Below are positions 6,354-33,653 of a DNA stretch of 64,000 bases, one piece after another. Position numbers and translations under genes: made by a program. Position 1 is the stretch's first letter. Every line of letters starts with the position of its first letter. A model generated the notes under the pieces. That model was not told the origin of the DNA. It saw nothing but the letters and a program-made list of their open reading frames with translations, and did no database searches. Source of the stretch: an uncultured delta proteobacterium (GTDB lineage: Bacteria; Desulfobacterota; Binatia; UBA9968); assembly GCA_963745035.1 (NCBI GenBank), contig CAVUVW010000016.1, forward strand, positions 32,001 to 96,000, written 5' to 3'.

Positions 6354-7857
6354 TCACCGCCGCCGGCCCACGCGGGCTTCTCGCGCACAAAGGGATAGAC
6401 GATGACCACGACCATGAGAACGATCAGCACGAGCACCAGCGGATGCGCCAGCCAGGCAAAGCCGTAGCGCGCCACGGAAATGAACAGATAGGTTTCGACG
6501 AGCTTGCCGAGCACCAGCCCGAGCACGAGCGGCGGGCGCGGCCAACCCCAAAGCACCATGAGATAGCCGAGCACGCCGAAGCAAAAAGTGACGATCAAAT
6601 CGGCGATATGACGGTTGGCGGTGTAGCTGCCGACGAAGACGAGCAACAGGACAAAGGGAATGATCAGATCCGCCCCGGATATATGTCACCTTGGCGAGTT
6701 GGTCGAGCACGGCGAGCGACAACACGACGGTGATGATGTTGGCGATGACCAGAGTCCAAACCATCGAGTAGGTCACCGCCAGATGCTTGCTCAGCATGTC
6801 GGGGCCGGGCACCAATCCCATGATCATGAATCCGCCGAGCAGAATCGCCATGGCGCCGCTGCCCGGCACGCCGAAAGCGATGGTCGGCACGAGATCGCCG
6901 CCTTCTTTGGAATTGTTCGCCGCGCCGGGCCCGAGCACGCCGCGCACATCTCCCTTGCCGAAGCGCTCGCGGTCCTTGGCGTCTTTCGCGCTCTGCACGG
7001 CATGGGCGTAAGCCATCCATTGGGCGACGCCGCCGCCGGCGCCGGGCATGATGCCGACGAATACGCCGACCGCCGAGCAGCGAAATACCAGCCAGAAGTG
7101 GCGGAAGGTATCTTTGATGCCTTCGACCACACCGCGGCTCAAATTTGCCGCGGGACGGTCGCCGGCGATGGATGTGCCGCGCACCGCGAGATCGACCAAC
7201 TCCGGAATCGCGAAGATGCCCACCAACACGGGCACGAGATCGAGCCCTTCCCACAGGTACAAAAGCCCCATGTCGAATCGGAGCGAGCCCGACTGGCGCT
7301 CCTGGCCGATGGTCGAAAGCAACAGGCCGAGCAAGCCCATGGCGAAGCCGCGGATCTGACCGCGCACGCTCAGAGCCGCTGAGCGAGGTGATGCAGGCGA
7401 TGCCGATCATGGAGAGCAGGAACAACTCCGGCGACCCAAAGGTGAGCACCAGCGGGCGGACGATCGGGATCGCGAGCGCCAGAGCGACGGCGCCGATCAA
7501 CGCGCCGACGAGAGAACTCATCAGCGCCGCGCCGAGCGCGCGGCCGGCTTCGCCGTTTTTCGCCATCGGATAACCGTCAACCACGGTGGCGGCGGAAAGT
7601 CCCTCGCCGGGCACGCCGAAAAGTATCGAGGTGATATCGCCCGTGGTCGCGGCCACGGAATGCATTCCTAGCAAGAAAGCGAAGGCTTCGGCGGGAGCCA
7701 TCTTGAAGACGAACGGAATCATCAAGGCGAGAGTCGCCGCGCCGCCGATGCCGGGAAGCAAGCCGACGCAAAAACCGAGAGCCATGCCGACCAGCATCAA
7801 GCTGAAGGCTTTCCACTGGAGAACGAGAAAAAGGCCGTCGATGAAGGCGTCGAGCAT
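6350..7857 (-). CDS. tctA: Tripartite tricarboxylate transporter large permease; frameshifts near 7370 and 6670
   Basis: GLLPGIGG, ILFGVPG, DGYPMAKNGEAGRALG, AANNSKEGG, PTIAFGVPG, WPRPPLVLG motifs across three frames. Confidence 0.9.
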
Positions 7858-9533: not shown

Positions 9534-10547
9534 TCAGCTCTCCGCTTTGATGTATTTGCCCATTTCCTTCAACGTCTCGGGCGTCTGATTGAGCAGCGCG
9601 TTGAAGTCTTTTTGTACCTGTTCGTGCGAGATCAACTGCATGTCGATCTTGGCTTTCTTCGCTTCGGCCAAGAGTTCCGGATCTTTGAGCGCTTTGGCGA
9701 AGGCGTCGCGCAAAATCGCCACGCGATCCGCCGGTGTGCCCGGTGCGGCCGCGAAAGCGCGGCCAATCGCGAGCGGCAGCGCCTTGATCGACATGAGCGA
9801 TTTGCCGAGCGGGCTGGTCGCGAGACTTTCATCGGTCGGTAGATTCTCAAATCCGGGCACCGGGGTGCGTCCGCGCACCAGCGGTCGCACCGCGCCGCGA
9901 TCGGCGGCGAGCTTGATCGTCGTGCCGAGCGCCGACCACGCGTCCACTTCCTTGCGCTCGATCGCCAAAAGGACATCGCTGTTGGCCGGGTAACCGGAGA
10001 CGAGCTTCAATTTCAGCCCGGCGAATTCCTTGAGCAGCAGCGGAAAGTCGTGGGCGTTGGAGCCCGGCCCGGTGGTGCCGGCGACCAGCTCTTTTTCGGC
10101 TTTCTTCAAATCGTCGATGCTCTTGTAGGGCAGGTCCGAACGGATGGAAAACATCACGCCGTCGGCCCCTGAGGAGCCGAGCCATTGAAACTTGTTTACG
10201 TCGAAGCGCACCTGTTCCACCTTCGAGAGCTGGGCGATGGCGACATTGGGATTCGCCGCGAGAATCGTCAGGCCATCGGGCTTGGAAATGTTGAAGACGT
10301 TGTTGGTCGCGAGCAGATGCGCGGCCCCGGGCATATGTTGCACAATCACCGTGGGCTTGCCGGGGATGTATTTGCCCAGATGATGCGCTACGACTTGCGA
10401 GGCGATCTCCAGACTGCCACTCTTAGCGCCGATCATAATCGTCAGCGTCTTGCCTTCGTAAAAGTTTGCTTGGCTCCAGCCGAGCCCAGCCGGCAATATC
10501 AACCACGCAAAAATGGCGAGAACTGTGAGTCTTTGAATTTGTTTCAT
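9534..10547 (-). CDS. TctC/Bug-family tripartite transporter substrate-binding protein
   Basis: Signal peptide, FYEGKTL, HLGKYIPGKPTVIVQHMPGA, KPDGLT, PGTPADRVAILRDAF. Confidence 0.88.
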   Translation of the reverse strand: MKQIQRLTVLAIFAWLILPAGLGWSQANFYEGKTLTIMIGAKSGSLEIASQVVAHHLGKYIPGKPTVIVQHMPGAAHLLATNNVFNISKPDGLTILAANPNVAIAQLSKVEQVRFDVNKFQWLGSSGADGVMFSIRSDLPYKSIDDLKKAEKELVAGTTGPGSNAHDFPLLLKEFAGLKLKLVSGYPANSDVLLAIERKEVDAWSALGTTIKLAADRGAVRPLVRGRTPVPGFENLPTDESLATSPLGKSLMSIKALPLAIGRAFAAAPGTPADRVAILRDAFAKALKDPELLAEAKKAKIDMQLISHEQVQKDFNALLNQTPETLKEMGKYIKAES

Positions 10548-10794
10548 ACTTGCCTCCTCCAAGATTTAGTGGATCCGCAAAGCACTATAGATGTCCGCCG
10601 TACCTCCTTTAAGCCGCCGCAAAGGTATTTCATCGGCCGCCCGCGAGTCAAGACCATATTCCTTTATTGGCTCGTGCCGAGAATCTGGCTCATGTGGGTC
10701 AGGCCCAAACGGGCTGTCGGAGACGAGCGCGATCCGAAGTCTTGCATTGACGCGTCGGTTTGCGTTAATCAAAGACGAGAGCGGAGTTAACGAG

Positions 10795-12854: not shown

Positions 12855-13826
12855 GTGTTTATGCTCCACATGAGTCTCCCCGGCGTACGGGTCTGGGCGA
12901 TGCTGCTGTGTCTGCAAGTCGTTGTCTTGCTCTGGCGGATTCCACCGGCGTCGGCTGTAGAAGATCTTCTTGTCTCCTACGCCGGTCCGACCGTCACGTT
13001 CCTGCCCGCGGAAGTGGCACGCCAACGCGGTTTTTTCCGCGAGCAGAACCTCGACATTAAATTGCTGCTTACAAGATCAGAGGTCGACCGCGCCGCGCTG
13101 GTGAGCGGCAGCGTCGACTACACGCTCAGGGCCGGGTCAAGCTTCGTCTCCGCGGCGCGAGGCTTGCCGGTGCGGATCGTTTTGCTCGGCACGATGAGAC
13201 CGTTCTGGGGCTTGGTGGTGCGCCCGGATGTAAATTCCGTGCGCGAGCTCAAGGGAAAATCGGTGGGCGTGCCGGGATTTCTTGGCTCGCAGCATGTTTC
13301 CGCGAAATTCATCTTAAAGCATCATGGGCTCGACCCCGATAAAGACGTCGTCTATCGCGTGGTCGATACCGGCTCGCGCATCGGCGCGGTCCTGTCGGGC
13401 TCCATCGACAGCTCGATGATGGACTACGGAGAAGCGTTCCGAGCGAAGAAAGCCGGTCTCAAGTTGATCGTCAATGCCGCCGAGCTGCACGGTCTGCTGG
13501 CGGGCGGTCTCGCGGTCAATACGAAGAAGCTGAAGGAACAGCCCGATCAAGTGCGGCGCATGCTGAAGGCAATGACACAGGCGTTAAGATACATGCAAGA
13601 GAATCCCGAAGGCACGCAACAGGTCATGATGAGCTGGCTCAAGCTCGATCGCGAGATGGCGGCCGATATCTACAAATTGGCGGTCAACAACTATACGAAG
13701 AACGGCATGGTGGAAGAGACGATGCTCAACTCGCTTGTCACGGCCATGCTGGCCGAGGCGGGTATCAAGAACGTCGCGCCGTCTCAGTTGGTGGATTTTA
13801 CGTTACTACAGCAAGCGCTTAAATAA
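12855..13826 (+). CDS. ABC-type substrate-binding protein, SsuA/THI5-like
   Basis: GFFREQNLD, ELKGKSVGV, GLDPDKDV. Confidence 0.85.
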   Translation: MFMLHMSLPGVRVWAMLLCLQVVVLLWRIPPASAVEDLLVSYAGPTVTFLPAEVARQRGFFREQNLDIKLLLTRSEVDRAALVSGSVDYTLRAGSSFVSAARGLPVRIVLLGTMRPFWGLVVRPDVNSVRELKGKSVGVPGFLGSQHVSAKFILKHHGLDPDKDVVYRVVDTGSRIGAVLSGSIDSSMMDYGEAFRAKKAGLKLIVNAAELHGLLAGGLAVNTKKLKEQPDQVRRMLKAMTQALRYMQENPEGTQQVMMSWLKLDREMAADIYKLAVNNYTKNGMVEETMLNSLVTAMLAEAGIKNVAPSQLVDFTLLQQALK

Positions 13827-14471: not shown

Positions 14472-16194
14472 ATGGAAACAAACAAAACGGTAACCGTTCC
14501 GGTAGAAAACGTCGGGCAGGCGTATTTGGAAATCCTCCGCGCGCGCGGGATCAAGTATTTTTTCGGCAACAGCGGGACGGACTTCGGGCCGATCATCGAC
14601 GGGCTTGGCGAAATTTGGCGCGGAGAAGAAAGCCCATCCGATGCCGATCACGGTGCCGCATGAATTCGTCGCCGTCAGCATGGCGCAGGGATATGCCATG
14701 ATCACGGGCGAGCCGCAGGTCGTCATGGTGCACGTGATTGTCGGAACGGGAAATGCCTCCGCCGCTGTAATGAATGCCTCGCGTCTCAACGTGCCGATGA
14801 TTTTTTCCGCGGGCCGGACGCCGCTCACGGAAGAAGGGCTGCGCGGGAGCCGGAGCAATTTCATCCACTGGGGTCAGGAGTCCTTCGATCAGGGAAGCTT
14901 GCTGCGCGAGTTCACGCGCTGGGACTACGAGCTGCGCAACGGCGATCAACTCGAAGCGGTCGTCGATCGCGCGCTCGAGATGGCGCTCGGTAACCCGCAA
15001 GGCCCGGTCTATTTGACGTTGCCGCGTGAAGTTCTCGCGCAAAAAATGGATTCGGTTACGATTCATCCTTTTCGAAAGAACACGGCGGAGGCTTTGCGAC
15101 CCAGCGACGAGACCATCCGGCGCACCGCGGATGTGCTGCGCGGCGCGGTGAATCCGGTTATCATTACCGGCCGCCTGGGCTCGGATCCGACCGCCGTAGG
15201 CGCGATGGTTTCGTTCGCCGAAGCGCTGGTGGCGCCCGTGGTCACGCCGGCGAGCCCGTTTGTCAGTTTTCCCAATACGCATGATTTTCATCTCGGCGTG
15301 AGCTCCGCGCCCTACGTCAAGGACGCGGACGTGATCGTCGTGGTCGAGAGCGATGTGCCGTGGTATCCGGTACAGGGCAAACCGCCGGAGAGCTGCAAGG
15401 TGATCCAAATCGCGCGCGACCCCAATTACGGCGGCATTCCGATTCGCCATTTTCCCAAGGATATTTCCATCGGCGGCGATCCGAAACTTGCTTTGGAGCT
15501 GCTCGCGCAGGAATTGAAAGTCCGGCCGGGAAACACGAAATTCGCGGCGGAGCGCGCCGAGCGGATTCGCTCCCAGCACAGACAGCATCGCGAGCGATTA
15601 AAGCAAAAAGCTGAAAAGGCGAGCGGGGAAAGGCCCATCGATACCGGCTGGTTGTCCTACTGCGTCGATCAAGTGAGAGACAAGGACACGCTCATCGTCA
15701 ACGATCACGGCGTGTCGCAAGAGCATTTGAGCTTGAGCGAGCCCGCGAGTTACTTCGGCGGCTCGCCGGCCGGCGGTCTCGGCTGGGGGATCGGCGGCGC
15801 ATTGGGCATGAAGCTCGCTCATCCGGAAAAAACCGTGATCACGAGCTGCGGCGATGGGACATACATGTTCAACAACCCGACCGCCTGTCATTTCGTATCG
15901 CAGGCGTATCATCTGCCGACGCTCACGATCGTGTGCAACAATGCGATCTGGCATTCGAGCAAGGCGGCCACGCAGCAAGTCCTGCCGGATGGCTGGGCGA
16001 CGAGCACGGGGAATTTTCCGCTCTGCGAGTTGTCGCCGTCGCCGCGCTACGAGATGGTGGTCGCCGCCCATGGCGGCTACGGCGAGATGGTGGATGATCC
16101 CGCTGAGCTTCCGGCCGCACTGAAGCGCGCGCTCAAAGTCGTCAAAGAAGAAAAACGCCAGGCCGTGCTGAATGTGATCTGCGGGAGTCATTGA
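14472..16194 (+). CDS. Thiamine pyrophosphate-requiring enzyme; frameshift near 14608
   Basis: FFGNSGTDFGP, VPHEFVAVSMAQG, PQGPVYLTLPRE, GDGTYMFN...NNAIW TPP motif. Confidence 0.9.
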
Positions 16195-16366
16195 ACGATT
16201 GTCCCGTTGATTCGTCTCATCGCAAATTCTCCAAGCAAATCTTCTCGCCGATGCACGCGACGGCTGCGCAATTTTTTCTACAGCGCGCGAAAATCCGCTC
16301 GTGTGCGGCGCCGCCGTGTAATCGGCGCCAATGTTCTTGCCGAAATAGTCGCCAAGGGCGAAAAAA

Positions 16367-16444
16367 TTATCCACAGTTGTGGATAACTGCGCTTTTGCAG
16401 AAATGACGTGTTGTTATCGACAACATCCACAGTGCTGTGAACAG
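16367..16444. promoter_or_regulatory. DnaA-box cluster
   Basis: Perfect TTATCCACA (16367-75) and inverted TGTGGATAA (16378-86), plus near matches TTATCGACA, ACATCCACA, TGTGAACAG; AT-rich tract follows. Confidence 0.65.
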
Positions 16445-16667
16445 ATGCCGCGCTACTCCGACGAAAAATTTTTCTAATTGCGCTGATTTCTGCTTGACAA
16501 ATTTGACAAGAAAAATTTAGAGTTGCGCCTCCTCGCATCATCGTTGGCACACAATTTAGTTTTTTTCACTGCGAAGGAGCTGTCTATCGTGTTCCCGATG
16601 TTGGACACGGAAAAGAGTGACGTTTGTCCAGTTCCAACAAGGACGGCCCGCACAGGAGGGTAGGCTC

Positions 16668-17945
16668 ATGATCGAAGTTCCCGGTTCTCAAAGACACAAA
16701 GCTTTGCTTGAAAGCCATTTTGGCTTTCGTGAAATGCCCTTCGGCGTGACTCCCGATCCGCGGTTTTTCTATGAGCATCCGCTGTATCTGGAGGGTCTGG
16801 CTGCGCTGATCCACGGAATCGAGTCGAAGAAAGGCTTCATGCTCGTGACCGGCGAAGTGGGAACAGGCAAGACGATCCTCTTGCGCAAGTTGATACGCCA
16901 CCTCGAGGCGCGCGTCCATTTCGTCTTCGTGTCCAACAGCCACCTCACATCCTACGGCTTGACCGAGTTGATCGTCCAGAATCTAGGCATAAGCAGCAAG
17001 GAGAAGAGCCGATTGGAAATGATTCAGGACTTGAACGGCTATCTCATCGAGCAGCTTCAGGCGGGCCACACCGTGACTTTATTGATCGATGAAGCGCAAA
17101 AGCTCAGCGATGAAGCCCTCGAGGGCCTTTGCGACCTGTCGAACTTGGAAACGGAGGAGGAAAAGTTACTGCAGATCGTGCTCGTGGGACAGCCGGAGGT
17201 GGCGGCCAAGTTGAACAAACCCTCCTTGCGCCGCATCAAGCAGCGCATCGCCTTGCACCACCGTCTCTATTCATTACAAACGCCGAGCGAGGTGGACTAC
17301 TATATTCGTCATCGCCTCAAGGTCGCGGGATATGAGGGACCTGAGCTTCTCAACAAAGAAGCGGTGGAAGCGACCTGGCAATATTCCGGAGGAACGCCCC
17401 GGTTGATCAATGTTCTTTGCGATAACGCGCTCGCGATGGCCTGCGTGGCGGCGAAGAAGAAGGTCTCTCCGTACATGATCATGAAGGCCGCCGGCGGCCT
17501 GCTGTTGGAGCCGAGCGCGGAAGCTCCAAAGATCACGCCGTCCGATGTCGGGCTTCTCAGGATGAAAGCCGCGGCGCCGAGAGACAATCCCAAACGCGCG
17601 GAGGCCAACGGCGTCCCGACGAACGGGAACGACTGGCCTGAATCATCGATTGCGTTGCGCGAGTCCGACCGCATGACGCTGTCGCGTTTCGCGACCAAAG
17701 GGCCGGCCGTCTCCGCGGTTTTTTTTGATCGTATGACGCGCGCCGCCACCGAAGCCATGGGTCCGATGGCCAACCGAATCCTCGGCGATCAGATTTCCGC
17801 GCTCGGAGAGTCGCGCCGCGCTTTTCCGCAGGCGAAGCTGGCGGAGCTCATCATAAGAGTGAGCGGGGAAATTTTAAATGAGACGATGAGAGCGCGATTT
17901 CAGAAGATCATGATCAACGAAATTGCCACTCTCAAAACGATGTAA
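16668..17945 (+). CDS. ExeA/GspA-like AAA ATPase with extra C-terminal helical domain
   Basis: HFGFREMPFGVTPDPRFFY, Walker A GEVGTGKT, Walker B LLIDEAQ, LVGQPE, SGGTPRLINVLCDNAL; no TM segment. Confidence 0.88.
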   Translation: MIEVPGSQRHKALLESHFGFREMPFGVTPDPRFFYEHPLYLEGLAALIHGIESKKGFMLVTGEVGTGKTILLRKLIRHLEARVHFVFVSNSHLTSYGLTELIVQNLGISSKEKSRLEMIQDLNGYLIEQLQAGHTVTLLIDEAQKLSDEALEGLCDLSNLETEEEKLLQIVLVGQPEVAAKLNKPSLRRIKQRIALHHRLYSLQTPSEVDYYIRHRLKVAGYEGPELLNKEAVEATWQYSGGTPRLINVLCDNALAMACVAAKKKVSPYMIMKAAGGLLLEPSAEAPKITPSDVGLLRMKAAAPRDNPKRAEANGVPTNGNDWPESSIALRESDRMTLSRFATKGPAVSAVFFDRMTRAATEAMGPMANRILGDQISALGESRRAFPQAKLAELIIRVSGEILNETMRARFQKIMINEIATLKTM

Positions 17946-17968
17946 GCGCAGCATCAAGGAGACGAGCC

Positions 17969-18721
17969 ATGAATCCGGAATCGCGACGGCTGGGCCTCAA
18001 GTGGAAGATCGGCGGCATTTTTACCGGTGTCATGTTGATCCTGGGCGTTTTTGTGATCGCCGCGGTGTATCGACTCACCGAAAGCGCGCTGCGAGATCAG
18101 CTCGACAAGCGGACTCTCGCCGTCGCCACCAACTTCAGCGATGCGGCGGCGGGACATATCGCCGCTAAAAATTCTCTCGCGCTTCATGCGCTGGCGCGCA
18201 AATACACGCTTCTCGACGGCGTCGCTTACGCCTACGTCGAAGATCCTAAAGGAGAGATCATCGCGCATACGTTGGGAACTTTTCCGGATGCCCTGCGGCA
18301 GGAAGTTTCCGCCAGCGACAAGCGTCAAACGAGGCGGCGGGAACTGTCACTCGGCGACCGCAGAGTCTACGAAGCCGCGGTGCCGGTTTTGGAAGGTCAG
18401 ATGGGCGGCGTTCGCGTCGGATTCTGGGCCGATGCGGTGCAAACGGAGATCCGCCGGGCGCTGCTGCCGATTATCGCCGTCGTTGCCGTCGTTCCCCTGG
18501 TCGGCGCGCTTTTATCTTTCTTGCTGGCGCACTGGATTGTTCGGCCGATCATTGGCTTAAGAGAAGTAGCCGACAAGGTCACCATGGGAGATCTGGAGAC
18601 TTCGGTGGGCGGCGATTGTGTCAGCTCGGGCGATGAGATCGGCGACTTGGCGCGCGCTCTCGAGCGCATGCGGTCGAGCCTCAGAGCGGCGATGTTGCGC
18701 CTGGGCAGGGAAGTAGCGTGA
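17969..18721 (+). CDS. Membrane sensor: TM-Cache-like-TM-HAMP with no output domain
   Basis: Two TM helices; periplasmic VAYAYVEDPKGEIIAHT; HAMP RPIIGLREVADKVTMGDL...DEIGDLARALERMR, then stop. Confidence 0.85.
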   Translation: MNPESRRLGLKWKIGGIFTGVMLILGVFVIAAVYRLTESALRDQLDKRTLAVATNFSDAAAGHIAAKNSLALHALARKYTLLDGVAYAYVEDPKGEIIAHTLGTFPDALRQEVSASDKRQTRRRELSLGDRRVYEAAVPVLEGQMGGVRVGFWADAVQTEIRRALLPIIAVVAVVPLVGALLSFLLAHWIVRPIIGLREVADKVTMGDLETSVGGDCVSSGDEIGDLARALERMRSSLRAAMLRLGREVA

Positions 18722-20043
18722 TGCGCTCGAAGGAGGAAATTATGCGCGCATGGTTGTTACAAGTCGTTTTTGCGCTGGTGATTGTCTTGCCGGTACGTGT
18801 GAGCGCGGCGGAGTCGCCGGCCAGTCGTCCGCTCGAGAAAGTGACGATCGCGTACAGCTCCATTTCAGGCAATATGGCGCCCTTGTGGATTACCCATGAG
18901 CGCGGCTTGTTCCGCAAGTACGGTCTCGACGCGCAGCTCGTTTTTATCGAGAGCGGCAGCACAACGGTGCAGAGCTTGATTTCCAAAGACGTCGCCTTTG
19001 CGCAAATGGCCGGCGCCGGGGTGATTCAAAGCCGCCTGCGCGGGTCGGACGTCGTGATGATCGCCGGAGTAATCAACACGCTGACGTTCAAATTCTTCGT
19101 CGATAAAAGCATCCAACAACCGGATCAACTCAAAGGAAAGGTCCTGGCTGTAACACGCTACGGCTCCTCGACGGATTTCGCGTTGCGCTACGCTCTCGAA
19201 AGGTACGGCCTTGCGCCAGACAAAGACGTCATGATTTTGCAGGCGAGCAATATGCCGGCGATCGTCGCGTCGCTCGAAAGCGGCAAGGTTCAGGGCGCCA
19301 TGTTGTCCGCGCCGTTCACGCTGACGGCGAAAAATATGGGGTTTCCCGTGATGGCCGATCTGCAGATGCTCGGCCTGGAGTATCAACACACCGGTCTGGC
19401 GACGACCCAGGCGCTGATCCGGACCCGTCCGGATCTGGTCCGCAACGCGATGAAGGCCTACGTGGAAGGTATTCACTACTACAAAACTCATCGCGCCGAA
19501 TCTTTGGCCGTTCTTGCGAAATACTTGAAGACCAACGACGCCGATGTTTTGGCGGAAGTTTACGACGATGTCGGGATCAACTTGACCGCTGAAAAGCCCT
19601 ATCCAACGCTGCGCGGGATCGGCATCATGCTGCGCGAGCTCGCCGCGACCAGTCCCAAAGCCGGCGCGGCTCGTCCCGAGGACTTCGTTGATTTGACTTT
19701 CATGAAAGAACTGGACGGCTCCGGGTTTATCGACCGACTTTACAAAAAGCCCTCGCCCGTCCTCGCCAGCCGCGAAAGCGCCGCGCCTTCGGTGAGTCAA
19801 AAAGCCCCGCCGGCAAGTGATAAAATCAAGCCGACCGGCGCGGAACCAAAATCGGTCGTGGCGGTCAACTCCGCCGAGAGCGCGCGCGAATACACCGTGG
19901 GGCCGGGCGATACATTGAGCAATATCGCCCGGAAATATTATGGCAATCCGTTCAAATGGGAGAAGATATTCCAGGCGAATCAGCCGGTCATGAAGAATCC
20001 CGACTACATCTACGTCGGGCAAAGGATCATCATTCCGTCTTGA
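18718..20043 (+). CDS. SsuA/THI5-like substrate-binding protein fused to C-terminal LysM domain
   Basis: GLFRKYGLD, LKGKVLAVTRYGSSTD; Pro/Ala/Ser linker; YTVGPGDTLSNIARKYYG...NPDYIYVGQRIIIP; start may be ATG 18721 or 18742. Confidence 0.88.
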   Translation: MMRSKEEIMRAWLLQVVFALVIVLPVRVSAAESPASRPLEKVTIAYSSISGNMAPLWITHERGLFRKYGLDAQLVFIESGSTTVQSLISKDVAFAQMAGAGVIQSRLRGSDVVMIAGVINTLTFKFFVDKSIQQPDQLKGKVLAVTRYGSSTDFALRYALERYGLAPDKDVMILQASNMPAIVASLESGKVQGAMLSAPFTLTAKNMGFPVMADLQMLGLEYQHTGLATTQALIRTRPDLVRNAMKAYVEGIHYYKTHRAESLAVLAKYLKTNDADVLAEVYDDVGINLTAEKPYPTLRGIGIMLRELAATSPKAGAARPEDFVDLTFMKELDGSGFIDRLYKKPSPVLASRESAAPSVSQKAPPASDKIKPTGAEPKSVVAVNSAESAREYTVGPGDTLSNIARKYYGNPFKWEKIFQANQPVMKNPDYIYVGQRIIIPS

Positions 20044-20098
20044 CCGCGCGAACATGCAAATAGCGCATTTTCAACGAACATAGAAAGGAAGGTTAAAG

Positions 20099-20395
20099 AT
20101 GTCCGAAGAGTCCAAGAAGCCGGAGCAGCCCTTCGATCAGCTCATCCGCGTGCTGCAAGAAGGAGAAGCGCGAAGAATCAGCGAGTGCATCCAGGAAATC
20201 GATCACCGATTGCTGGATTGCCGGAAGTCATTGGATGAGTACAGGCGTTTGCGCACGACTTTGCGCTCGATCAACGGCCAGCTCTCCCGGCTGGGCGCCG
20301 AGCCATTGGCCGTCGCCGATGATCTGCCCACTCAGGATTTGAGCGAGATCATCAAGAGCCGCATCGATCACTTCAAATCCACGGGAAGAATCTAG
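20099..20395 (+). CDS. Hypothetical small helical/coiled-coil protein
   Basis: RBS AAAGGAAGG; amphipathic 98-aa ORF co-oriented with the operon. Confidence 0.65.
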   Translation: MSEESKKPEQPFDQLIRVLQEGEARRISECIQEIDHRLLDCRKSLDEYRRLRTTLRSINGQLSRLGAEPLAVADDLPTQDLSEIIKSRIDHFKSTGRI

Positions 20396-20551
20396 CGCGC
20401 GCATTGTGAACCGGGACTCGGCGTGAGATCAATCGGGTCGTTCCACGGGATCGGAGTTCTACGGCTCGATTTTCCTGATCAAAGTCGAAACTGACGGCGC
20501 TTCCAGCCGAGTCCGCGCTTGTCCCAACCCGCCAGTTGAGCGGAAGTTTCC

Positions 20552-20580
20552 GAACGGGGAGGACCTTCTCCTCCCCGTTC
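20552..20580. terminator. 12-bp stem-loop, probable terminator
   Basis: GAACGGGGAGGA-ccttc-TCCTCCCCGTTC between converging transcription units. Confidence 0.55.
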
Positions 20581-20591
20581 CGCTCTTCTCA

Positions 20592-20808
20592 TTATGCCAG
20601 ATCGATGTTTTGCTCCGGTCCGTCTTCGGGGCACGGAACGAACAAGTCGACGCGTTCGCCGGTGCTTGGATCTGCGATGCTGCCCGCGTAGCAGTAGTCG
20701 ATCGCTGCGAGCTGGATGGTTTCGCTCGGAATGCTCTCATTGACGGTCTCGGCGGCCGTGAGCTTCTCGCTTTGAACGGGCTGGCGCGCTTTATTTTCAA
20801 AAAATCAT
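20592..20808 (-). CDS. Putative ~71-aa acidic small protein (start broken by T-homopolymer indel)
   Basis: Removing one T from ATGATTTTTTGAA gives MIFENKARQ...DYCYAGSIADPSTGERVDLFVPCPEDGPEQNIDLA; hairpin just downstream. Confidence 0.4.
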
Positions 20809-20891
20809 AGTTGATCGATGCAGCAGCAGCGGAACTGCCGGCGAGCATTGCTACCCGATCAGCATTGCGGCGGTGCTTGTTGATCGGCAAC

Positions 20892-24236: not shown

Positions 24237-25980
24237 GTGGACCAGCATAGCCTTCTCGCCAATATCGGTCTTGTCTTCATCGTCGCGACGCTGGCCGCGT
24301 TCCTCGCCAAGCTGCTCAAGCAGCCTTTGATTCTCGCCTATCTGGTCGCCGGCGTGGTCATCGGGCCAGAGATCGGTTTTGCGTGGGTGGAAGACAAGGA
24401 GATCATCGAGTTGATCTCGGAGATCGGCTTGATTCTGCTGCTTTTTATTATCGGACTCGAGATCGATCTCAAAAAGCTCGCCAGCGCCGGGCGGACACTG
24501 CTGGTCATCGGCGTCAGCCAATTCCTTCTGTGTGTCGGGCTGGGCATTGCCTTGGCGATCTTCATGGGCTTCGCGCTGCGCGGCGCCAACTTCGACTGGC
24601 TCTATCTGGCCGTGACGCTGTCGCTCAGCAGCACGTTGATCGTCGTCAAGCTGCTCTACGACAAATTCGAGCTCACGACCTTGCCCGGGCGCATCACCCT
24701 CGGCGTCCTGGTATTTCAGGATATCTGGGCGATCGTTTTTCTCGCCCTCCAGCCCAATCTGCATGATCCGCAGTTGAGCACGCTCTTGGTGTCCTTCGTC
24801 AAGGGCGCGGCGCTGGTTTTCGCCGCGCTGGCCTTGAGCCGCTACGCCCTGCCGCGGCTTTTCTCCTTTGTCGCCAAAGTTCCGGAGCTGTTACTGATCG
24901 CCGCGCTCGCGTGGTGTTTTCTTGTCGTGCGGCGCAGCCGACCGGCTCGGCCTGTCGAGCGAAATGGGCGCGCTGGTCGCCGGGGTCAGCATCTCGACGT
25001 TTCCCTACAACATCGATGTGATCGCCAAGGTCACGAACATTCGCGATTTTTTTGTCACGTTGTTTTTTGTCGCTCTCGGCATGAAGATCCCCGAGCCCTC
25101 GCTGGCGATTGTCACGGCCGCCGCGGGCATGTCGCTTTTCGTGCTCGCCAGCCGCCTGCTGGCGGTTTTTCCCGTGCTGTATTTGCTCGGCAACGGCTTG
25201 CGGGCGAGCCTGATTCCGTCGATCAATCTGGCGCAGATGAGCGAGTTTTCTTTGGTGATCGCCTCCCTCGGTCTGGCTTTGAATCACGTGAGCGCGGAGC
25301 TGGTGGGAACTCTGACTTTCGTGTTCGCCATCACCTCCGTCCTCTCGACCTATCTCATCGCCTACAATCACGAGATCCAGCGGCGGATGGCTGCTTTTTT
25401 GATAAAAATAGGGTTTCCCAGCGACGGCGATGCCGACGACGACGCGAAAGCCGAGCAAGAAAACGCCGTCGTGTTTCTCGGCTGCTTTCGTGAGGCGAGC
25501 TCGATTCTCCACGAGCTCGAATTTCAATCTCGGGACGCCGACGGCGCGGGCGTTCTCGATCGCACTCTGGTGATCGATTTCAATCCGCTGGTGCTTCGCG
25601 AGCTGCGCCGGCGTGGCATCCGCTGCCTTTATGGCGACGTGGCGCACATGGATACCTTGCACCACGCGCACATTCATGAGGCGAAGATCGTCGCGTGCAC
25701 GATTTCCGATGCGATCCTGCGGGGCACGACCAACTTGCGGCTCGTGCGCCAAGCGCGGCGTCTTTGTCCGCACGCCCAGGTGATCGCCGCCGCCGACACG
25801 ATCGGCGCGGCGATAGAGCTCTACGAAGAGGGCGCCGACTTTGTCTACATCGCGAGGCTGCATTCGTCGGTTCAGACCGCGGAGCTCATCGTCCGAGCGG
25901 CCGACGACGCGGATGCGTTGCCAGCCCGTCGTGAAGAGGATCTCCGGATGCTGAAAGAGCGGCGGGAAATTCTTCCCTGA
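24237..25980 (+). CDS. CPA2 cation:proton antiporter with TrkA-N domain (KefB/KefC-like); frameshift near 24925
   Basis: LLFIIGLEID, LSSTLIVVKLL, VFQDI, RDFFVTLFFV, YGDV. Confidence 0.88.
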
Positions 25981-28773: not shown

Positions 28774-30075
28774 ATGGAAAATAACGTGTCCGTAAGGGAA
28801 ATCGACAGCGCGCCGAGCCGCGCCTTGCAGCGCTACTATCCATGGGTGGTTATCGGCATCGCGTTTCTGACCGTCGGCGTGGCGTTCGGCGCGCGCAACG
28901 CGTTCGCGGTTTTTCTGGTGGCGGTCGTCGAAGAGTTTCGCTGGAGCCGCGGCGCCGCATCGGGCGCGCTCATGCTCGGCTCGGTTTTGTGGACGCTCTC
29001 CGCTCCGGTGATCGGGACTCTGCTCGATCGCGTCGGGCCGCGCATCGTGCTGCCGGGCGGCGCGACTTATCATGGCGGCCGGCTTTGTCGGTCAGCGGCT
29101 TTGCCCATTCGATCATCGAATTTTACGCCGGCATGGGCGTGTTGATGGGCATCGGCTTTGCCGCGCTGCCGATGACCTCGCAGGCCACATTCTTATCGAA
29201 CTGGTTCATTCGCAAGCGCGGCATGGCGATCGGCGCCGCCGCGTCGGGCATCGGCCTCGGGATTCTCCTCGTCGTGCCTTGGACCCAGTGGCTGATCGCG
29301 GTCTACGGCTGGCGCGCCGCGTACTTCGCTCTCGCCGCGTTGCTGGCGCTCATCATCGCGCCGCTGAATTATTTTTTTCAGCGCCAGCGGCCCGAAGAGA
29401 TGAATCTCAAGCCCGACTTCGGCGCGCCGGCGCCGGAGAAATCCGCCACTCGCGCGCGCGCCGCGAATACCAGCGGGCCGAGTTTAGAAGAAGCGCTGCG
29501 CACGTGGAGATTCTGGGCGTTTGCCTTGGGCGTGTTTGCCGGCGCGATCCCGCTGCACATGGTTTTGATTCATCAAGTCGCGGCGGTGAGCGATGCGGGA
29601 TTCTCGAAGGAGCTGGCGGCGTTCGGCCTCGGCATGATCGGGCTGTTCACCGCGCCGGCCATGATCGGCATGGGCCTCCTCGCCGATCGAATCGGACGGC
29701 AGCGCTCCTATGCGCTCGGCTCGGCGTCGCTGATGATCGGGATTTTTCTCTTGATGATGATCGACGGCGCCGGCCGGAGTTGGATTGCTCTACTTGTTTC
29801 CGCCGTTTATCGCCGTCGGCTTTTCCTCGCGCCAGTCGCTCTATCCGACCATCGCCGCCGATCTGTTTCACGGCAGGTCCTTCGGCGCGATCATCGGCGC
29901 GATTTCGCTGTTTATCGGCGCCGGCGCCGGCATCGGCCCGTGGCTCGGCGGCGCGATCCACGACTGGACCGGCAGCTACCGCGCGGCCTTCTGGGTCGCG
30001 CAGGCGACCGCGCTGGCGTCGGTAGTTTTCATCTGGCTTGCCGGCTCGCGCGACAAACGGGCTGCCGTTTCCTGA
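28774..30075 (+). CDS. MFS transporter; several frameshifts (about 29065-29095 and 29790)
   Basis: GTLLDRVGPR, WFIRKRGMAIG, GLLADRIGR, DWTGSY across frames. Confidence 0.85.
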
Positions 30076-30144
30076 GCTCGCGAAAGCCAAGAAAAAAATC
30101 ATGGGCTCTTTTCACATTTACCCCCGCACGGGGTTTTAATTATC

Positions 30145-30660
30145 ATGGCGCGTGAAAAGCTCCGATTGCCGCTGTCCTTCGACGAGATTCTGCGGCGCTA
30201 CGAACGCGAGATCCTGCGCTATCTGGTGCGGCTATCGGGCGATCGAGAGGACGGTGCCGACTTGTTTCAGGAAACCTGGCTGCGCGCCTACCGTGCCTAT
30301 CCGCGGCTCAAGGCCGACAGCGACGCGCGCGCGTGGCTGTACGCCATCGCGGTCAATCTCTACCGCAATCGCGCCCGCGACGGCGCCCGCCGCGCGCGCG
30401 TGATCGTGGCCGAAGATCGAGAAAACCCGGCGGCGGAAGGCATAGGCGCGCGGCGCGCGCTCAACGGCAACGACGGCTATGCGGCCGTGCATCTGCGTGA
30501 GCTTCTGGCCGCGCTTCCGGCGCGGCAGCGCGAGGCGATGCAACTGCGCTACTTCGCGGGACTGGATTATGCGGAGATCGCAGCGGCCATGGGCGGCTCT
30601 CAGGAAAGCGCGCGGGCCAACGTTTCCCAGGCGACGAGAAAACTAAAATCGATGTGGTGA
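30145..30660 (+). CDS. ECF RNA polymerase sigma-70 factor
   Basis: Region 2 DLFQETWLRAYR...AWLYAIAVN; region 4 LPARQREAMQLRYFAGLDYAEIA. Confidence 0.92.
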   Translation: MAREKLRLPLSFDEILRRYEREILRYLVRLSGDREDGADLFQETWLRAYRAYPRLKADSDARAWLYAIAVNLYRNRARDGARRARVIVAEDRENPAAEGIGARRALNGNDGYAAVHLRELLAALPARQREAMQLRYFAGLDYAEIAAAMGGSQESARANVSQATRKLKSMW

Positions 30661-31460
30661 TGCTTATGGAATTCGAAAAATTGATCGGCTCCGCCGGCGC
30701 ATTCAAAGACGAAAGTTTGGACGATCTGCTGCGGCGCGCGCGCCGCGGCTTCGACGGCGCGCTCAAGCGCGTGCGGCGACCCGAAGCGGCGGTCGGCGTG
30801 GCGCCGTCGCCGCTGGGCGATTTGCTCGTAGCCATGACCGGCGGCGGCATCGTGATGATTCATTATCTCGCCGGCGACGTCGCCTCAACGATCGAGAAAC
30901 TTCGTCCCCGCTTGGATCTTGTGGAGGATCCGCGGGCCATCGAGGGCGTGGGCGAGGAGATTCGCCGCTATTTGTCCGGAGAGGCGCAAGCGCTGCGCCG
31001 CAGCGTCGATCTGCGCCTCGCCGCCAGTCCCTTTCAGCAGAAAGTCTTGCGCAAGCTTCAGGAGGTTCCGCGCGGCGCGGTGCTCAGCTATCAAGCTTTG
31101 GGCGCGGCGGCGGCTGCGCCCAAAGGCGCGCGGGCGGTGGGCAACGCGATGCACAACAATCCCGTGCCGATCTATGTGCCTTGCCATCGGGTGATTGCGT
31201 CAGGCGGCGCGCTCGGCGGCTACGGCGGCGGAGCGCGGCGCAAAGTGCAACTGCTGCGCAGCGAAGGCTTCGATCTCGGCGACGGCGCCGTGAGGCTTCC
31301 CGGGAGCGCGGTGTGGGGGCACAAGGGAACAAAAATTTATTGCCGCAACGACTGCCGGACCGCAGCGCGCGTGGACCAGAGCCGGATTTTGTTTTTCGCC
31401 GATCCCAAAGATGCGAAACATGCCGGCTTGCGGCCGTGCAAGATCTGCCGGCCGGAATAG
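30654..31460 (+). CDS. Methylated-DNA-protein-cysteine methyltransferase with C-terminal Ada-type Zn-binding domain
   Basis: SPLG, FQQKV, ARAVG, active site VPCHRV; C-terminal KIYCRNDC...AGLRPCKICRP. Confidence 0.9.
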   Translation: MVMLMEFEKLIGSAGAFKDESLDDLLRRARRGFDGALKRVRRPEAAVGVAPSPLGDLLVAMTGGGIVMIHYLAGDVASTIEKLRPRLDLVEDPRAIEGVGEEIRRYLSGEAQALRRSVDLRLAASPFQQKVLRKLQEVPRGAVLSYQALGAAAAAPKGARAVGNAMHNNPVPIYVPCHRVIASGGALGGYGGGARRKVQLLRSEGFDLGDGAVRLPGSAVWGHKGTKIYCRNDCRTAARVDQSRILFFADPKDAKHAGLRPCKICRPE

Positions 31461-31469
31461 CGGGCGAGC

Positions 31470-32423
31470 ATGAGATCACCGGCATCAAAAATGCGCGAGA
31501 CTTGCGGCAGGGGCGGCGTCGAGATTGATCTGCCGTTCAAGCCACCGTACGACTGGCCGGCCATCCTGCGATTCTATCAGTCGCATTCGATCCCCGGCGT
31601 CGAACGGGTTACGGATGAGTCTTTCGCCCGCGTGTTTCGGCTCGACGGCATGCTCGGATTTTTTGAGGTTCGCGCGGTCGCCGGCAAGCCCAGGTTGCGA
31701 CTTCGGATCGTGGGCGACGATCGCGCGATCGCTGCCGAAGTTGTGCGCCGGGTAGGAAGGATGTTCGATCTCGACTGCGACCCGATGCTCATTGCAAAGA
31801 GTTTTTGCGCCAGTCCGCTGCTCGCCGGCTTGTGCCGGCGCTTTCCCGGTTTGAGGCTGGCGCGCGGCTGGGACCCGTTTGAGACCGCGGTATGTTCGAT
31901 CCTGGGGCAGCTTGTCTCGGCTCGGCAAAGAACGAATTTGATCGGCCAGTTGGTAAGCAGCTACGGCGACGAAGTCGTCGATCCGGCGTCTGGGGAAAGT
32001 ATCCGCTTATTTCCGGATGCCCGAATCCTGGCACGCTCGAAACTCGACGCGGTGAGGACGACGATTGCGCGCCGCGAAGCGATTCGCGACTTGAGCCGGC
32101 GCGTCGTGAGCGGCGCGATCTCATTTTCCGACAGTCAAAATCCGGCGGCATTGCGCAAGGCCCTGCTCGAAACCAAGGGAATCGGCTCCTGGTCGGCGGA
32201 ATACATCAGCCTGCGGGCGATCGGCGACACGGATGCGTTTCCCAAAACCGATTTGATTCTGAAACGAGCGCTCGCGCTCCATCCCGATCTCGACTTGGAC
32301 CGGCTCGCGCCGTGGCGGGCTTACGCGGCCACATATCTGTGGAAGGAATTTGCCGAGACGCTTTCGAAGAACCGGAAGATTACATCGCAGAGGCGCAGAG
32401 AACGCGGAGATCATAAAAGGTGA
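31470..32423 (+). CDS. alkA: DNA-3-methyladenine glycosylase II (AlkA N-domain + HhH-GPD)
   Basis: PPYDW, IPGVE, DPFETAVCSILGQLVS, KGIGSWSAEYI.LR, DAFP..DL, PWRAYA; start could be 31491. Confidence 0.9.
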   Translation: MRSPASKMRETCGRGGVEIDLPFKPPYDWPAILRFYQSHSIPGVERVTDESFARVFRLDGMLGFFEVRAVAGKPRLRLRIVGDDRAIAAEVVRRVGRMFDLDCDPMLIAKSFCASPLLAGLCRRFPGLRLARGWDPFETAVCSILGQLVSARQRTNLIGQLVSSYGDEVVDPASGESIRLFPDARILARSKLDAVRTTIARREAIRDLSRRVVSGAISFSDSQNPAALRKALLETKGIGSWSAEYISLRAIGDTDAFPKTDLILKRALALHPDLDLDRLAPWRAYAATYLWKEFAETLSKNRKITSQRRRERGDHKR

Positions 32424-32430
32424 AACGAAG

Positions 32431-32940
32431 ATGACGCTGTCTTACAACGAAATGGACTCGCCGGTGGGTAAGCTCAGACTGGTCGCGAACGCGGCGGCTC
32501 TCGTCGCTGTTCTGTGGGAGAAGGAACAGCCGAACCGGGTGCGGCTCGGGAGCATGAATTTCAATCCGGACCATCCGGTGCTGAACGAAACTGAACGGCA
32601 GCTCGCTGAATATTTTTCGAGCACGAGAACGGCGTTCGATCTGCCGCTCGCGCCGCGCGGCAGCGAATTTCAGAAAAAAGTCTGGCAGGCTTTAAGAAAG
32701 ATACCCTTCGGCGAGACCCGAAGTTATCTGGCCTTGGCCAAAGAGCTGGGCTCCGCCAACGCCGTCCGCGCGGTCGGCGCCGCCAACGGCAAGAATCCGT
32801 TGTCGATTGTCGTGCCGTGTCATCGGGTCATCGGCACCGACGGCGCGCTGACCGGCTTCGCCGGCGGTCTCGTGGTGAAAGCCAAGCTGCTGGATTTTGA
32901 ATCCAGCAGGTCGATACCGACTCAGGAGAAGCTTTTTTGA
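32431..32940 (+). CDS. ogt: O6-methylguanine-DNA methyltransferase
   Basis: SPVGKL, GSEFQKKVW, IPFGETRSY, NPLSIVVPCHRVIG. Confidence 0.92.
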   Translation: MTLSYNEMDSPVGKLRLVANAAALVAVLWEKEQPNRVRLGSMNFNPDHPVLNETERQLAEYFSSTRTAFDLPLAPRGSEFQKKVWQALRKIPFGETRSYLALAKELGSANAVRAVGAANGKNPLSIVVPCHRVIGTDGALTGFAGGLVVKAKLLDFESSRSIPTQEKLF

Positions 32941-33653
32941 GCGTCACGGCGCGGGCGCGAAAACTGGAGGTCGACTGGGATCGAGCGCGTGCGCGGCTCG
33001 ATCAACGCGGCTTTGCGCTGATTCCCGGCGCGCTCGCGCAGCGGAGCTGTGAAGAGATCGCCGGCACCTACGCGGACGACGGCCGTTTTCGCTCGCGCAT
33101 CGACATGGCGCGCCACGCCTTCGGGCGCGGCGAATACAAGTATTTCGACTATCCCCTGCCGGCGATCGTGGGGCGGCTTCGCGCGGCGTTCTACCGTGAG
33201 CTTGCGCCGCTCGCTAACGAATGGGCCGCGCGGCTCGGCGCCAGGGCGCGCCGCTTTCCCGAAGAGTTTTCAGACTTCATCGATCAGTGCCATCGCGCCG
33301 GCCAGAAGCGCCCCACGCCGCTGCTGCTGAAATACGGCGCCGGGGATTTCAACTGCCTGCACCAGGATCTCTACGGCGATATCGTGTTTCCTTTTCAGGC
33401 GACGTTTTTCCTCAGCCGGCCGGCCGAAGATTTCCAAGGCGGCGAGTTTGTCCTCACCGAGCAGCGGCCACGCCGGCAATCGCGGGCCGAAGTGTTGTCA
33501 CCGAATCAGGGCGACGCCGTGATCTTCGCCGTTCATCATCGCCCCGTGCAGGGCGCGCGTGGCTACTACCGAGCCAATCTTCGCCATGGGGTCAGCACGG
33601 TTCGCTCCGGCGCGCGCTATACTCTGGGAATTATTTTTCACGACGCCAAGTAG
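32937..33653 (+). CDS. 2OG-Fe(II) oxygenase (DUF2086-like)
   Basis: FGRGEYKYF, PTPLLLKY, LHQDLYG, GGEFVL, RHGVS, LGIIFHDA. Confidence 0.85.
   Translation: MSVTARARKLEVDWDRARARLDQRGFALIPGALAQRSCEEIAGTYADDGRFRSRIDMARHAFGRGEYKYFDYPLPAIVGRLRAAFYRELAPLANEWAARLGARARRFPEEFSDFIDQCHRAGQKRPTPLLLKYGAGDFNCLHQDLYGDIVFPFQATFFLSRPAEDFQGGEFVLTEQRPRRQSRAEVLSPNQGDAVIFAVHHRPVQGARGYYRANLRHGVSTVRSGARYTLGIIFHDAK

Follow-up and report, generated by a model that had tools for sequence, protein, structure and literature searches.

What does a membrane receptor pass its signal to when a HAMP domain is the only part of it that reaches the cytoplasm? For two decades HAMP signalling has had its structural model in Af1503 of Archaeoglobus fulgidus; the signalling target of such receptors is not known. 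The question is raised by four genes (g1, g2, g3 and g4; open reading frames (ORFs) of 425, 250, 441 and 98 amino acids (aa), all on the + strand) of an uncultured delta proteobacterium of the Binatia (contig CAVUVW010000016.1, positions 32,001 to 96,000; this stretch of 64 kb, at its full length, is called the window). They encode an ExeA-family ATPase, a receptor, a substrate-binding protein and a small companion protein. With a probability of roughly 0.5, the block is a bacterial, kinase-free transmembrane pathway of the Af1503/STAC type, STAC being a domain without a demonstrated role, in which the adaptor is fused to the ATPase.

In g2, Pfam recognised sCache_3_2 (residues 38–164) and HAMP (residues 185–240), and the protein ends 10 residues past the latter; two hydrophobic segments (hydropathy; residues 12–41 and 159–197) flank the extracytoplasmic sensor. 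Judged by its family, g2 is output-less by design, because all 120 listed relatives are 231–265 aa long and 118 of them carry sCache_3_2 and HAMP only; the C-terminus is conserved in 17 of the loci described below. Comparison of g2 with the PDB sequences gave 18 matches at E ≤ 0.1, headed by the entry 'Hamp domain of AF1503' (1.7e-7; 26 of 54 columns identical, reaching the C-terminal tail). All except a rhodopsin chimera, i.e. 17 matches, are HAMP constructs, and seven were named AF1503 by their depositors; the remaining short constructs and chimeras we take to be Af1503-derived as well. Thus g2 resembles Af1503 in having HAMP as its sole cytoplasmic part and, among solved structures, in its closest HAMP sequence.

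The C-terminus of g1 was read as DUF8082 (PF26309.1) from the annotation of all 120 listed relatives; g1 has at least 120 relatives (clusters) of 75–97% identity over the full length. The AlphaFold2 model of the domain (62-sequence alignment; predicted local distance difference test (pLDDT) 88) consists of four helices (21–35, 39–49, 59–71 and 76–95) in two hairpins with a 9-residue linker (50–58); the motif (M/L)GPxA, MGPMA in g1, lies at the junction of the first two helices (h1 and h2), and in the 62 sequences P37 does not vary while G36 and A39 reach at least 90% conservation. The best PDB structure match of the model was Af1502 (5a1q; probability 0.93, TM-score 0.71 on the target, root-mean-square deviation 2.5 Å over 66 columns, E 0.67). 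In its depositors' account (PMC4834066), Af1502 is the founding STAC domain, STAC being described as a bundle of four helices, paired in two hairpins that nine residues link, h1 being joined to h2 by an LGPx(x)A motif; according to the same account, genomic coupling connects stand-alone STAC proteins with Af1503-like receptors, in which HAMP is the sole cytoplasmic part, and Af1502 escapes sequence searches. On the predicted model, DUF8082 agrees with this description in size and fold (ca. 60–90 residues, two hairpins, a linker of about nine residues). As with Af1503, the gene next to g2 encodes a predicted four-helix domain (ca. 75 residues; motif of the LGPx(x)A type); in 17 of 19 loci g2 adjoins a gene with DUF8082, a candidate STAC domain. 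Since their best matches are Af1503 and Af1502, g2 and the C-terminal domain of g1 both point to the same pair of neighbouring A. fulgidus genes. In its predicted fold, its motif and its gene context, DUF8082 resembles STAC, of which it may or may not be a homologue.

The block also departs from the archaeal pair. Af1503-like receptors are archaeal as described in print, whereas all 19 block loci are from bacterial metagenome-assembled genomes (MAGs); a Cache domain forms the sensor of the block; the four-helix domain is part of an AAA+ ATPase, the gene of which precedes that of the receptor, where in the archaeal pair it comes after; a binding protein with LysM and g4 are additional; and no sequence-profile link was found between DUF8082 and STAC, of which Af1502 is a member. 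The coupling of Af1503-type receptors with STAC is already known; fusion of the adaptor to an ATPase was not found in the literature on STAC and Af1503-like receptors, and a literature search gave no published account for PF26309/DUF8082, TIGR03015 or ExeA in Binatia.

The pathway that we infer, with its contacts, ligand, direction of signalling and output, would run as follows. The protein g2 would be the bacterial counterpart of Af1503-type receptors, with a single periplasmic Cache, two membrane helices and only HAMP in the cytoplasm, and g1 an ExeA-family AAA+ ATPase in which soluble, STAC-like DUF8082 would stand in place of the membrane anchor and the wall-binding periplasmic domain that are usual in the family. 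Where present, g3 would serve as a LysM-tethered co-receptor that binds a small solute (nitrate/bicarbonate/sulfonate class) for presentation to the Cache of g2; thereupon the HAMP of g2 would change state, DUF8082 of g1 would dock on the cytoplasmic face of g2, read this state and relay it to the AAA+ module, and the periplasmic signal would set the nucleotide or assembly state of g1. An obligatory cytoplasmic partner or a substrate of the ATPase would be g4, and g1 and g4 would act on a target, for which an envelope or polysaccharide assembly process is favoured because relatives of the ATPase lie in polysaccharide-export and secretin loci and DUF8082 occurs on Wzz/GNVR/ParA-like co-polymerases. 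Docking under g2 would mirror the packing of STAC under the membrane (transporter) domain in CbrA, where STAC is described as a proposed coupling element (PMC13022988). The relay itself has a proposed counterpart, in that source, in the SLC5-STAC kinases (CbrA, CrbS, RpuS), in which the state of a membrane protein would reach a cytoplasmic enzyme via a four-helix domain; there the adaptor shares one chain with transporter and kinase, whereas in the block it is carried by the ATPase and the receptor is separate.

A profile scan with the g1 alignment (one genome per species) gave 34 loci: 19 (L001–L019) with full-length g1 relatives of 59–83% identity, and an outgroup of 15 with 31–53% identity to g1 and neither DUF8082 nor g4. 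The 19 MAGs are labelled Binatia (8), 'Deltaproteobacteria' (7), Syntrophobacter(aceae) (2), Verrucomicrobiia (1) and Pyrinomonadaceae (1). Arrangements were taken from tblastn, ORF clustering and profile searches; the contig stops after g2 in L011 and L017, and the other 17 loci were judgeable for g3 and g4. The order g1-g2-g3-g4 was found in nine of these (L002, L004, L005, L006, L009, L013, L016, L018 and L019), g1-g2-g3 preceded by a longer g4 paralogue (185–213 aa) in L010 and L014 (in L014 the contig end cuts the locus), g1-g2-g4 lacking g3 in L001 and L015, g1-g2 with the long g4 paralogue as the sole g4-type gene in L012, and g1-g4 alone, without an adjacent g2, in L003 and L007; L008 holds a g1/g2 deletion remnant and, 3.4 kb downstream, a 123-aa g4-like gene. 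Directly downstream of g1, g2 was present in 17 of the 19 loci, in 16 of them within 23–108 nucleotides (nt) and on the same strand, the seventeenth being L008, where a truncated g1 abuts a partial g2. The gene g3 follows g2 in 11 judgeable loci, is missing from six and never occurs without g2; a gene of the g4 family is present in all 17, and g1 and g4 form the constant pair. Profiles of DUF8082 and g4 matched only within L001–L019 and in none of the 15 outgroup loci. Flanking genes vary from locus to locus (ORF clusters), and no gene cluster beyond the four genes is common to most of the 19 loci; clusters shared between related loci comprise the four genes, receiver-domain proteins and unrelated genes. 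Because the gene set is conserved while the flanks are not shared, the block is, on this comparative ground, a conserved unit and probably one operon, with g1 and g4 as its core and g3 as an accessory.

An earlier note on this DNA, made from its letters, had proposed the four genes as one trans-envelope module and a synteny search as the check; they do co-occur in other genomes, complete and in order in the nine loci named. Its distribution of roles has shifted: the binding protein with LysM, listed there as a part of the module, is not a core part, being absent from six judgeable loci, and the small protein, treated as an appendage, belongs to a family that accompanies the ATPase throughout. 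ATPase homologues in ordinary type II secretion or mannose-sensitive haemagglutinin (MSHA) loci without these partners had been named as a counter-argument; the partner-bearing clade is distinct and stands outside such loci, and the flanks of L001–L019 share no type II secretion or MSHA cluster (ORF clustering; flanks scanned in part against Pfam). With regard to genes suggested there as companions, no roadblock/MglB or small GTPase gene turned up in the flanks, only partly scanned against Pfam, and DUF4388 was found in another form, fused to DUF8082 in 3 of 81 proteins (see below).

Two oddities of the set concern its labels and joins. In L008:436-1813 (contig labelled Verrucomicrobiia), g1 ends at about residue 343 and runs into residues 157–239 of g2, DUF8082 being lost; this junction is a deletion or an assembly join. 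Near-identical operons in L014, L018 and L019 (labels Pyrinomonadaceae and Syntrophobacter(aceae)) cluster among Binatia sequences in the tree, which suggests mislabelled bins or recent transfer.

Table 1: Positions of the four genes, their domains and the upstream sites in the window
Feature	Position	Strand	Remarks
Palindrome TTATCCACA-NN-TGTGGATAA (NN = GT)	16367..16386	.	two perfect DnaA-box-like 9-mers, head to head, ~300 nt before g1
Third DnaA-box-like site TTATCGACA	16414..16422	+	1 mismatch; followed by conserved CATCCACAG (upstream alignment)
Promoter-like TTGACA-18-TAGAGT	16494..16523	+	10/12 consensus matches; consensus match only
g1	16668..17945	+	cytoplasmic ExeA-family AAA+ (AAA_22) ATPase, C-terminal DUF8082
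g1 ATPase module	16710..17477	+	residues 15–270; TIGR03015 positions 3–258 of 269
g1 AAA_22 core	16824–17210	+	residues 53–181
g1 STAC-like four-helix domain (DUF8082/PF26309)	17715..17942	+	residues 350–425; MGPMA motif at residues 364–368
g2 inner-membrane receptor	17969..18721	+	first transmembrane segment, periplasmic sCache_3_2 18080–18460, second transmembrane segment, HAMP 18521–18688, no output domain
g3 exported NMT1/SsuA-type substrate-binding protein	18742..20043	+	binding domain 18829–19521, C-terminal LysM 19891–20037
g4	20099..20395	+	98-aa cytoplasmic protein, no known family

The start of g1 at 16668 is preceded by GGAGGG; 23 nt separate g1 from g2, and 55 nt separate g3 from g4. 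For g3, a GTG start at 18718 (441 aa) would overlap the end of g2 (18721); ATG 18742 is the likelier start, because it sits 5 nt past AGGAGG and the alignments of relatives begin only at residue 10–16, and g2 is thus probably followed by a 20-nt gap and not by an overlap. A Pfam scan covered 66 ORFs across the window; no type II secretion component, secretin, polysaccharide-export protein, histidine kinase or response regulator was found among them, and HisKA, HATPase_c and Response_reg domains were missing from the four genes as from the rest of the window, so that the block differs from two-component systems. No ABC (ATP-binding cassette) permease or ABC ATPase gene adjoins the block in the window; the permeases that were found (Na+/H+ exchanger, 24237-25493; major facilitator superfamily, 28842-30155; TctA) are not adjacent to it, its neighbours being unrelated metabolic genes.

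These results agree in large part with the earlier note. The four co-oriented genes with gaps of 23 and 55 nt are as it had given them, while its overlap of g2 and g3 hinges on GTG 18718 and yields to the gap. An ExeA-like ATPase (AAA_22, E 9e-26, with intact Walker motifs), an output-less receptor with Cache and HAMP and nothing after HAMP, and a binding protein with LysM (NMT1-type domain and LysM, by Pfam/NCBIfam) were all recovered. Its statement that type II secretion, kinase and response-regulator genes are missing nearby stands; for permeases it holds for the adjoining genes, permeases of other kinds being encoded elsewhere in the window.

In g3, an NMT1/NMT1_2 substrate-binding domain (NMT1_2, 1.8e-22) and LysM (residues 392–440) are joined by a Pro/Ser/Ala-rich linker of ~55 residues; LysM matched the peptidoglycan-binding LysM model PRK11198 (1.4e-17), and the protein has a single N-terminal hydrophobic segment (hydropathy). 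It has the fold of the NMT1/SsuA class of ABC-transporter binding proteins and, unlike these, no ABC permease or ABC ATPase gene next to it. A gene for a periplasmic binding protein beside one for a membrane receptor is also found in LuxP-LuxQ and TorT-TorS, and by analogy delivery of the ligand is presumed; unlike g2, LuxQ and TorS are histidine kinases, and unlike g3, LuxP and TorT have no LysM tether. Further NMT1-type binding proteins are encoded in the window at 2119-3168 (-), 12855-13826 (+) and 45282-46271 (+), and TctC-type ones at 9534-10562 (-) and 48136-49188 (-), none of which adjoins an ABC permease gene; that at 2119-3168 (-) is the nearest g3 paralogue of the window, with 38% identity and no LysM.

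In g1, Walker A (G62–T69) and Walker B (D141–E142) are intact and invariant in 32 aligned sequences. Its best-scoring curated family was TIGR03015, the XrtA/PEP-CTERM-associated ATPase (231.3 bits, 1.4e-68), 256 of the 269 positions being aligned with the ATPase domain; the score is under the cut-off of 324.5, and, unlike in that family, no PEP-CTERM, XrtA or export genes lie near the block. ExeA/GspA of Aeromonas and Vibrio is an ATPase that aids secretin assembly. With it g1 shares an AAA_22 P-loop module at the N-terminus, including the conserved N-terminal and Walker motifs, in a family linked to envelope and peptidoglycan; unlike ExeA/GspA, it has no membrane segment (no hydrophobic segment in the hydropathy scan) and neither PG_binding_1 nor LysM (Pfam), its C-terminus being DUF8082, and neither ExeB/GspB nor a secretin or type II secretion gene accompanies it among the 66 ORFs.

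The outgroup shows the ATPase in envelope surroundings: between Poly_export, Wzz/GNVR and AAA_31 genes (L022, L025 and L026), next to a secretin and T2SSF (L030), fused to a membrane segment and BON (L021), or fused to PG_binding_1, which is the ExeA architecture (L027). Because close relatives carry a membrane segment with BON or PG_binding_1 and not DUF8082, it is, by this comparison, through the C-terminus that ATPases of this family are connected with the envelope. In the ATPase-domain tree (42 rows) the Binatia-type ATPases form a clade (support 100/100), surrounded by DUF8082-bearing proteins of the representative library; L020 and L021, with a membrane segment and a periplasmic domain, nest within the larger, 25-row DUF8082-bearing clade (support 99/99; inner forks only 81–83). 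Because of this nesting it looks as if the C-terminal module was exchanged within one ATPase lineage, in an unclear direction, and not as if an ExeA ancestor was simply split, which argues against the idea of the earlier note that the functions of ExeA are here divided among separate genes. Reading the C-terminus of L020 by eye as LysM or SPOR was dropped, as the Pfam match to SPOR was marginal (E 0.049) and below the cut-off. The g1 profile gave no match among PDB sequences. A full-length model of g1 from a shallow alignment of 20 sequences was poor (pLDDT 46) and was not used. Assignment to a defence system was rejected: the PADLOC matches were weak (g1 P-loop, best 1.4e-7; g4, coiled-coil-like, 6.6e-4) and the genes are highly conserved in one lineage.

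For g4 no Pfam or NCBIfam family, no usable match in an Atlas search and no hydrophobic segment (hydropathy scan) were found. C41 is invariant and C30 nearly so, and the C-terminal RIxHFKSxGKI is conserved. Co-folding of g1 with g4 gave a score of 0.00 in both runs, made without controls, and speaks neither for nor against binding. In five loci a longer g4 paralogue (183–213 aa), which has an insertion and one more helix at the N-terminus, is encoded upstream of g1, on the + strand in L004:7302-7853, L009:83-724 and L014:153-710 and on the - strand, divergent from g1, in L010:5457-6065 and L012:7951-8559, sometimes beside the short g4 and sometimes in its place; the window has none.

The distribution of DUF8082 was taken from a profile of the last 96 residues of g1, which matched 677 representative proteins at E ≤ 0.001; the domain is nearly always C-terminal and sometimes in tandem. 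Two or three tandem copies are present in P0241, P0244, P0249 and P0260, one of which is a fragment resembling the end of a ParA/BY-kinase-like protein. Of the best 150 matches, 81 are 196 aa or longer, and a Pfam scan of these gave the following N-terminal partners: AAA_22 in 14, AAA_31/ParA-like in 11 (six with Wzz or GNVR), DUF4388 in three, Phage_ABA_S in two, Sec2p-like in one, and no N-terminal domain at E ≤ 1e-6 in 50. As a STAC comparison set, an RpuS-type SLC5/STAC kinase on pNGR234b (L037:42133-45741, -) and seven plasmid-borne relatives were used. Among PDB sequences, macrophage migration inhibitory factor was all that the DUF8082 profile matched, at chance level (E 0.28 or worse), and three DUF8082 sequences had no match among plasmids (tblastn).

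A number of results weigh against a pathway of the Af1503/STAC type. The match of the model to Af1502 has a Foldseek E value of 0.67, none of its 118 matches reached E ≤ 0.001, and four-helix bundles are common. The hhalign probability for DUF8082 against the RpuS-type STAC region was 0.07 (8 sequences, one subfamily); the DUF8082 profile did not retrieve 5a1q among the PDB sequences; and SLC5, kinase or two-component domains were found on none of the 81 proteins. Solved HAMP structures are mostly Af1503 constructs, which inflates the match of g2. The g2-type HAMP profile matched none of the best 150 DUF8082 proteins, i.e. no HAMP-DUF8082 fusion was seen, and with DUF8082 on 11 ParA/AAA_31-type proteins, six of which have a Wzz/GNVR of their own, its partner need not be a HAMP receptor. 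L003 and L007 keep a DUF8082-bearing g1 and g4 without an adjacent g2; on co-occurrence alone g4 appears at least as good a candidate for the partner of DUF8082 as g2. Finally, all related loci are metagenome bins of one lineage, so that the counts are not independent events. The putative kinase-free link between receptor and ATPase put forward in the earlier note is thus strengthened by the resemblances to Af1502 and Af1503 and weakened by the profile comparison.

Three other explanations were weighed against the Af1503/STAC-type pathway. The block might be an envelope-assembly machine, the ATPase energising or scaffolding an outer-membrane or polysaccharide-export structure with g2 as the anchor and the LysM of g3 as the grip on peptidoglycan, and sensing being secondary or absent. 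The extent of the TIGR03015 alignment, the outgroup relatives among Poly_export, Wzz/GNVR and AAA_31 (L022, L025 and L026), by secretin/T2SSF (L030) or with PG_binding_1 (L027) or BON (L021), the occurrence of DUF8082 on Wzz/GNVR/AAA_31 proteins and the PRK11198 match of g3 would all suit such a machine. We consider it unlikely, given that no secretin, exporter or polymerase gene is among the 66 window ORFs, that g3, the sole wall-binding part, is absent from six of 17 loci and g2 from two of 19, that the score for TIGR03015 is below its cut-off, that Cache and HAMP are signalling domains, and that the tree has no simple split of an ExeA-like ancestor. Somewhat less likely again is a module that senses the loading of g3 and regulates an uptake system encoded elsewhere, the ATPase acting on the transporter or being an unusual energising subunit. 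According to the published account of STAC, Af1503-like receptors are found near transport genes, and a role in the regulation of solute transport is proposed there (PMC4834066). The nature of g3, an ABC-type binding protein of the SsuA/NrtA class, and the three orphan NMT1 and two TctC binding proteins elsewhere in the window point the same way; against this, no ABC permease or ABC ATPase gene adjoins the block, no cluster beyond the four genes recurs in most of the 19 loci, g3 is optional, and a LysM tether would be odd on a shuttle protein. Nor do we know of AAA_22 ATPases that energise transporters.

The third explanation treats the four genes as two independent pairs: a cytoplasmic ATPase system of g1 and g4, DUF8082 binding g4, and a separate sensor of g2 and g3 with its output elsewhere. 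The occurrence of g1 and g4 without g2 and g3 in L003 and L007, the presence of g4 with a DUF8082-bearing g1 in 17 of 17 judgeable loci and in none of the 15 of the outgroup, and the lack of a HAMP-DUF8082 fusion among the best 150 DUF8082 proteins would be as expected. We find this the least probable of the three, since in 16 of 19 loci g2 lies 23–108 nt behind g1, in the same orientation, despite unrelated flanks, since none of the 120 listed relatives of g2 carries an output of its own, and since only coincidence would then account for g2 and g1 both resembling members of one neighbouring gene pair, Af1503 and Af1502.

Upstream of g1, a pair of DnaA-box-like sites (≤1 mismatch per box) was found at -303 to -236 of the ATG in 16 of the 19 sequences with enough upstream DNA, namely the window, L001–L010, L012, L014, L015, L017 and L018; it is absent from the most divergent branch (L013, L016 and L019). 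One or two further box-like sites accompany the pair (window 16367-16432), upstream of the promoter-like site, the -35 region of which, CTTGACAA, is conserved across loci. In the same loci 44 DnaA boxes were counted in 7,667 nt of upstream DNA and 25 in 297,642 nt elsewhere (~68 times denser upstream). Transcription of the block may thus be tied to DnaA, as far as the occurrence of the boxes indicates, or the palindrome may be bound by another regulator. The leader between the promoter-like site and g1 (16524-16667, ~145 nt) is conserved in sequence; it gave no supported consensus fold (-1.17 kcal/mol), and comparison of 16150-20500 with Rfam gave no relevant match.

Past g4 lie ~500 nt of apparently non-coding DNA without a terminator-like site on the + strand. 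A 143-aa ORF on the - strand (20459-20890), between g4 and a luciferase-like monooxygenase, is Arg/Ser-rich without a family match and is probably not a gene. The TctA permease gene (6354-7857, -) is interrupted by a frameshift or a sequencing error: two ORFs, which overlap and differ in frame, cover positions 3–148 and 148–372 of the profile. The genes at 30145-33653 (+), encoding an extracytoplasmic function (ECF) sigma factor, an Ada-like methyltransferase, AlkA, a second O6-methylguanine methyltransferase and a DNA-repair oxygenase, are an alkylation-repair cluster unrelated to the block.

A wider reading, which we hold to be doubtful, would make DUF8082 domains general plug-in adaptors through which membrane receptors or transporters control P-loop ATPases (ExeA-type AAA+ and Wzz/ParA-type co-polymerases); the operon would then encode the first identifiable effector of the Af1503 class, in a pathway driven by an ATPase, fed by g3 and timed by DnaA, and transmembrane signalling would have a third route in addition to kinases and chemoreceptors. 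If the Af1503/STAC-type pathway is real, a HAMP-only receptor would gain a defined enzymatic read-out in the assembly of g1 or its ATP hydrolysis, and DUF8082, with its 677 representative proteins, would have a first function. Binatia are a widespread lineage of soil and sediment, of which to our knowledge there is no cultured member; the block would then point to a conserved, envelope-linked pathway in them, and the operon may show how output-less sensors pass their signal on.

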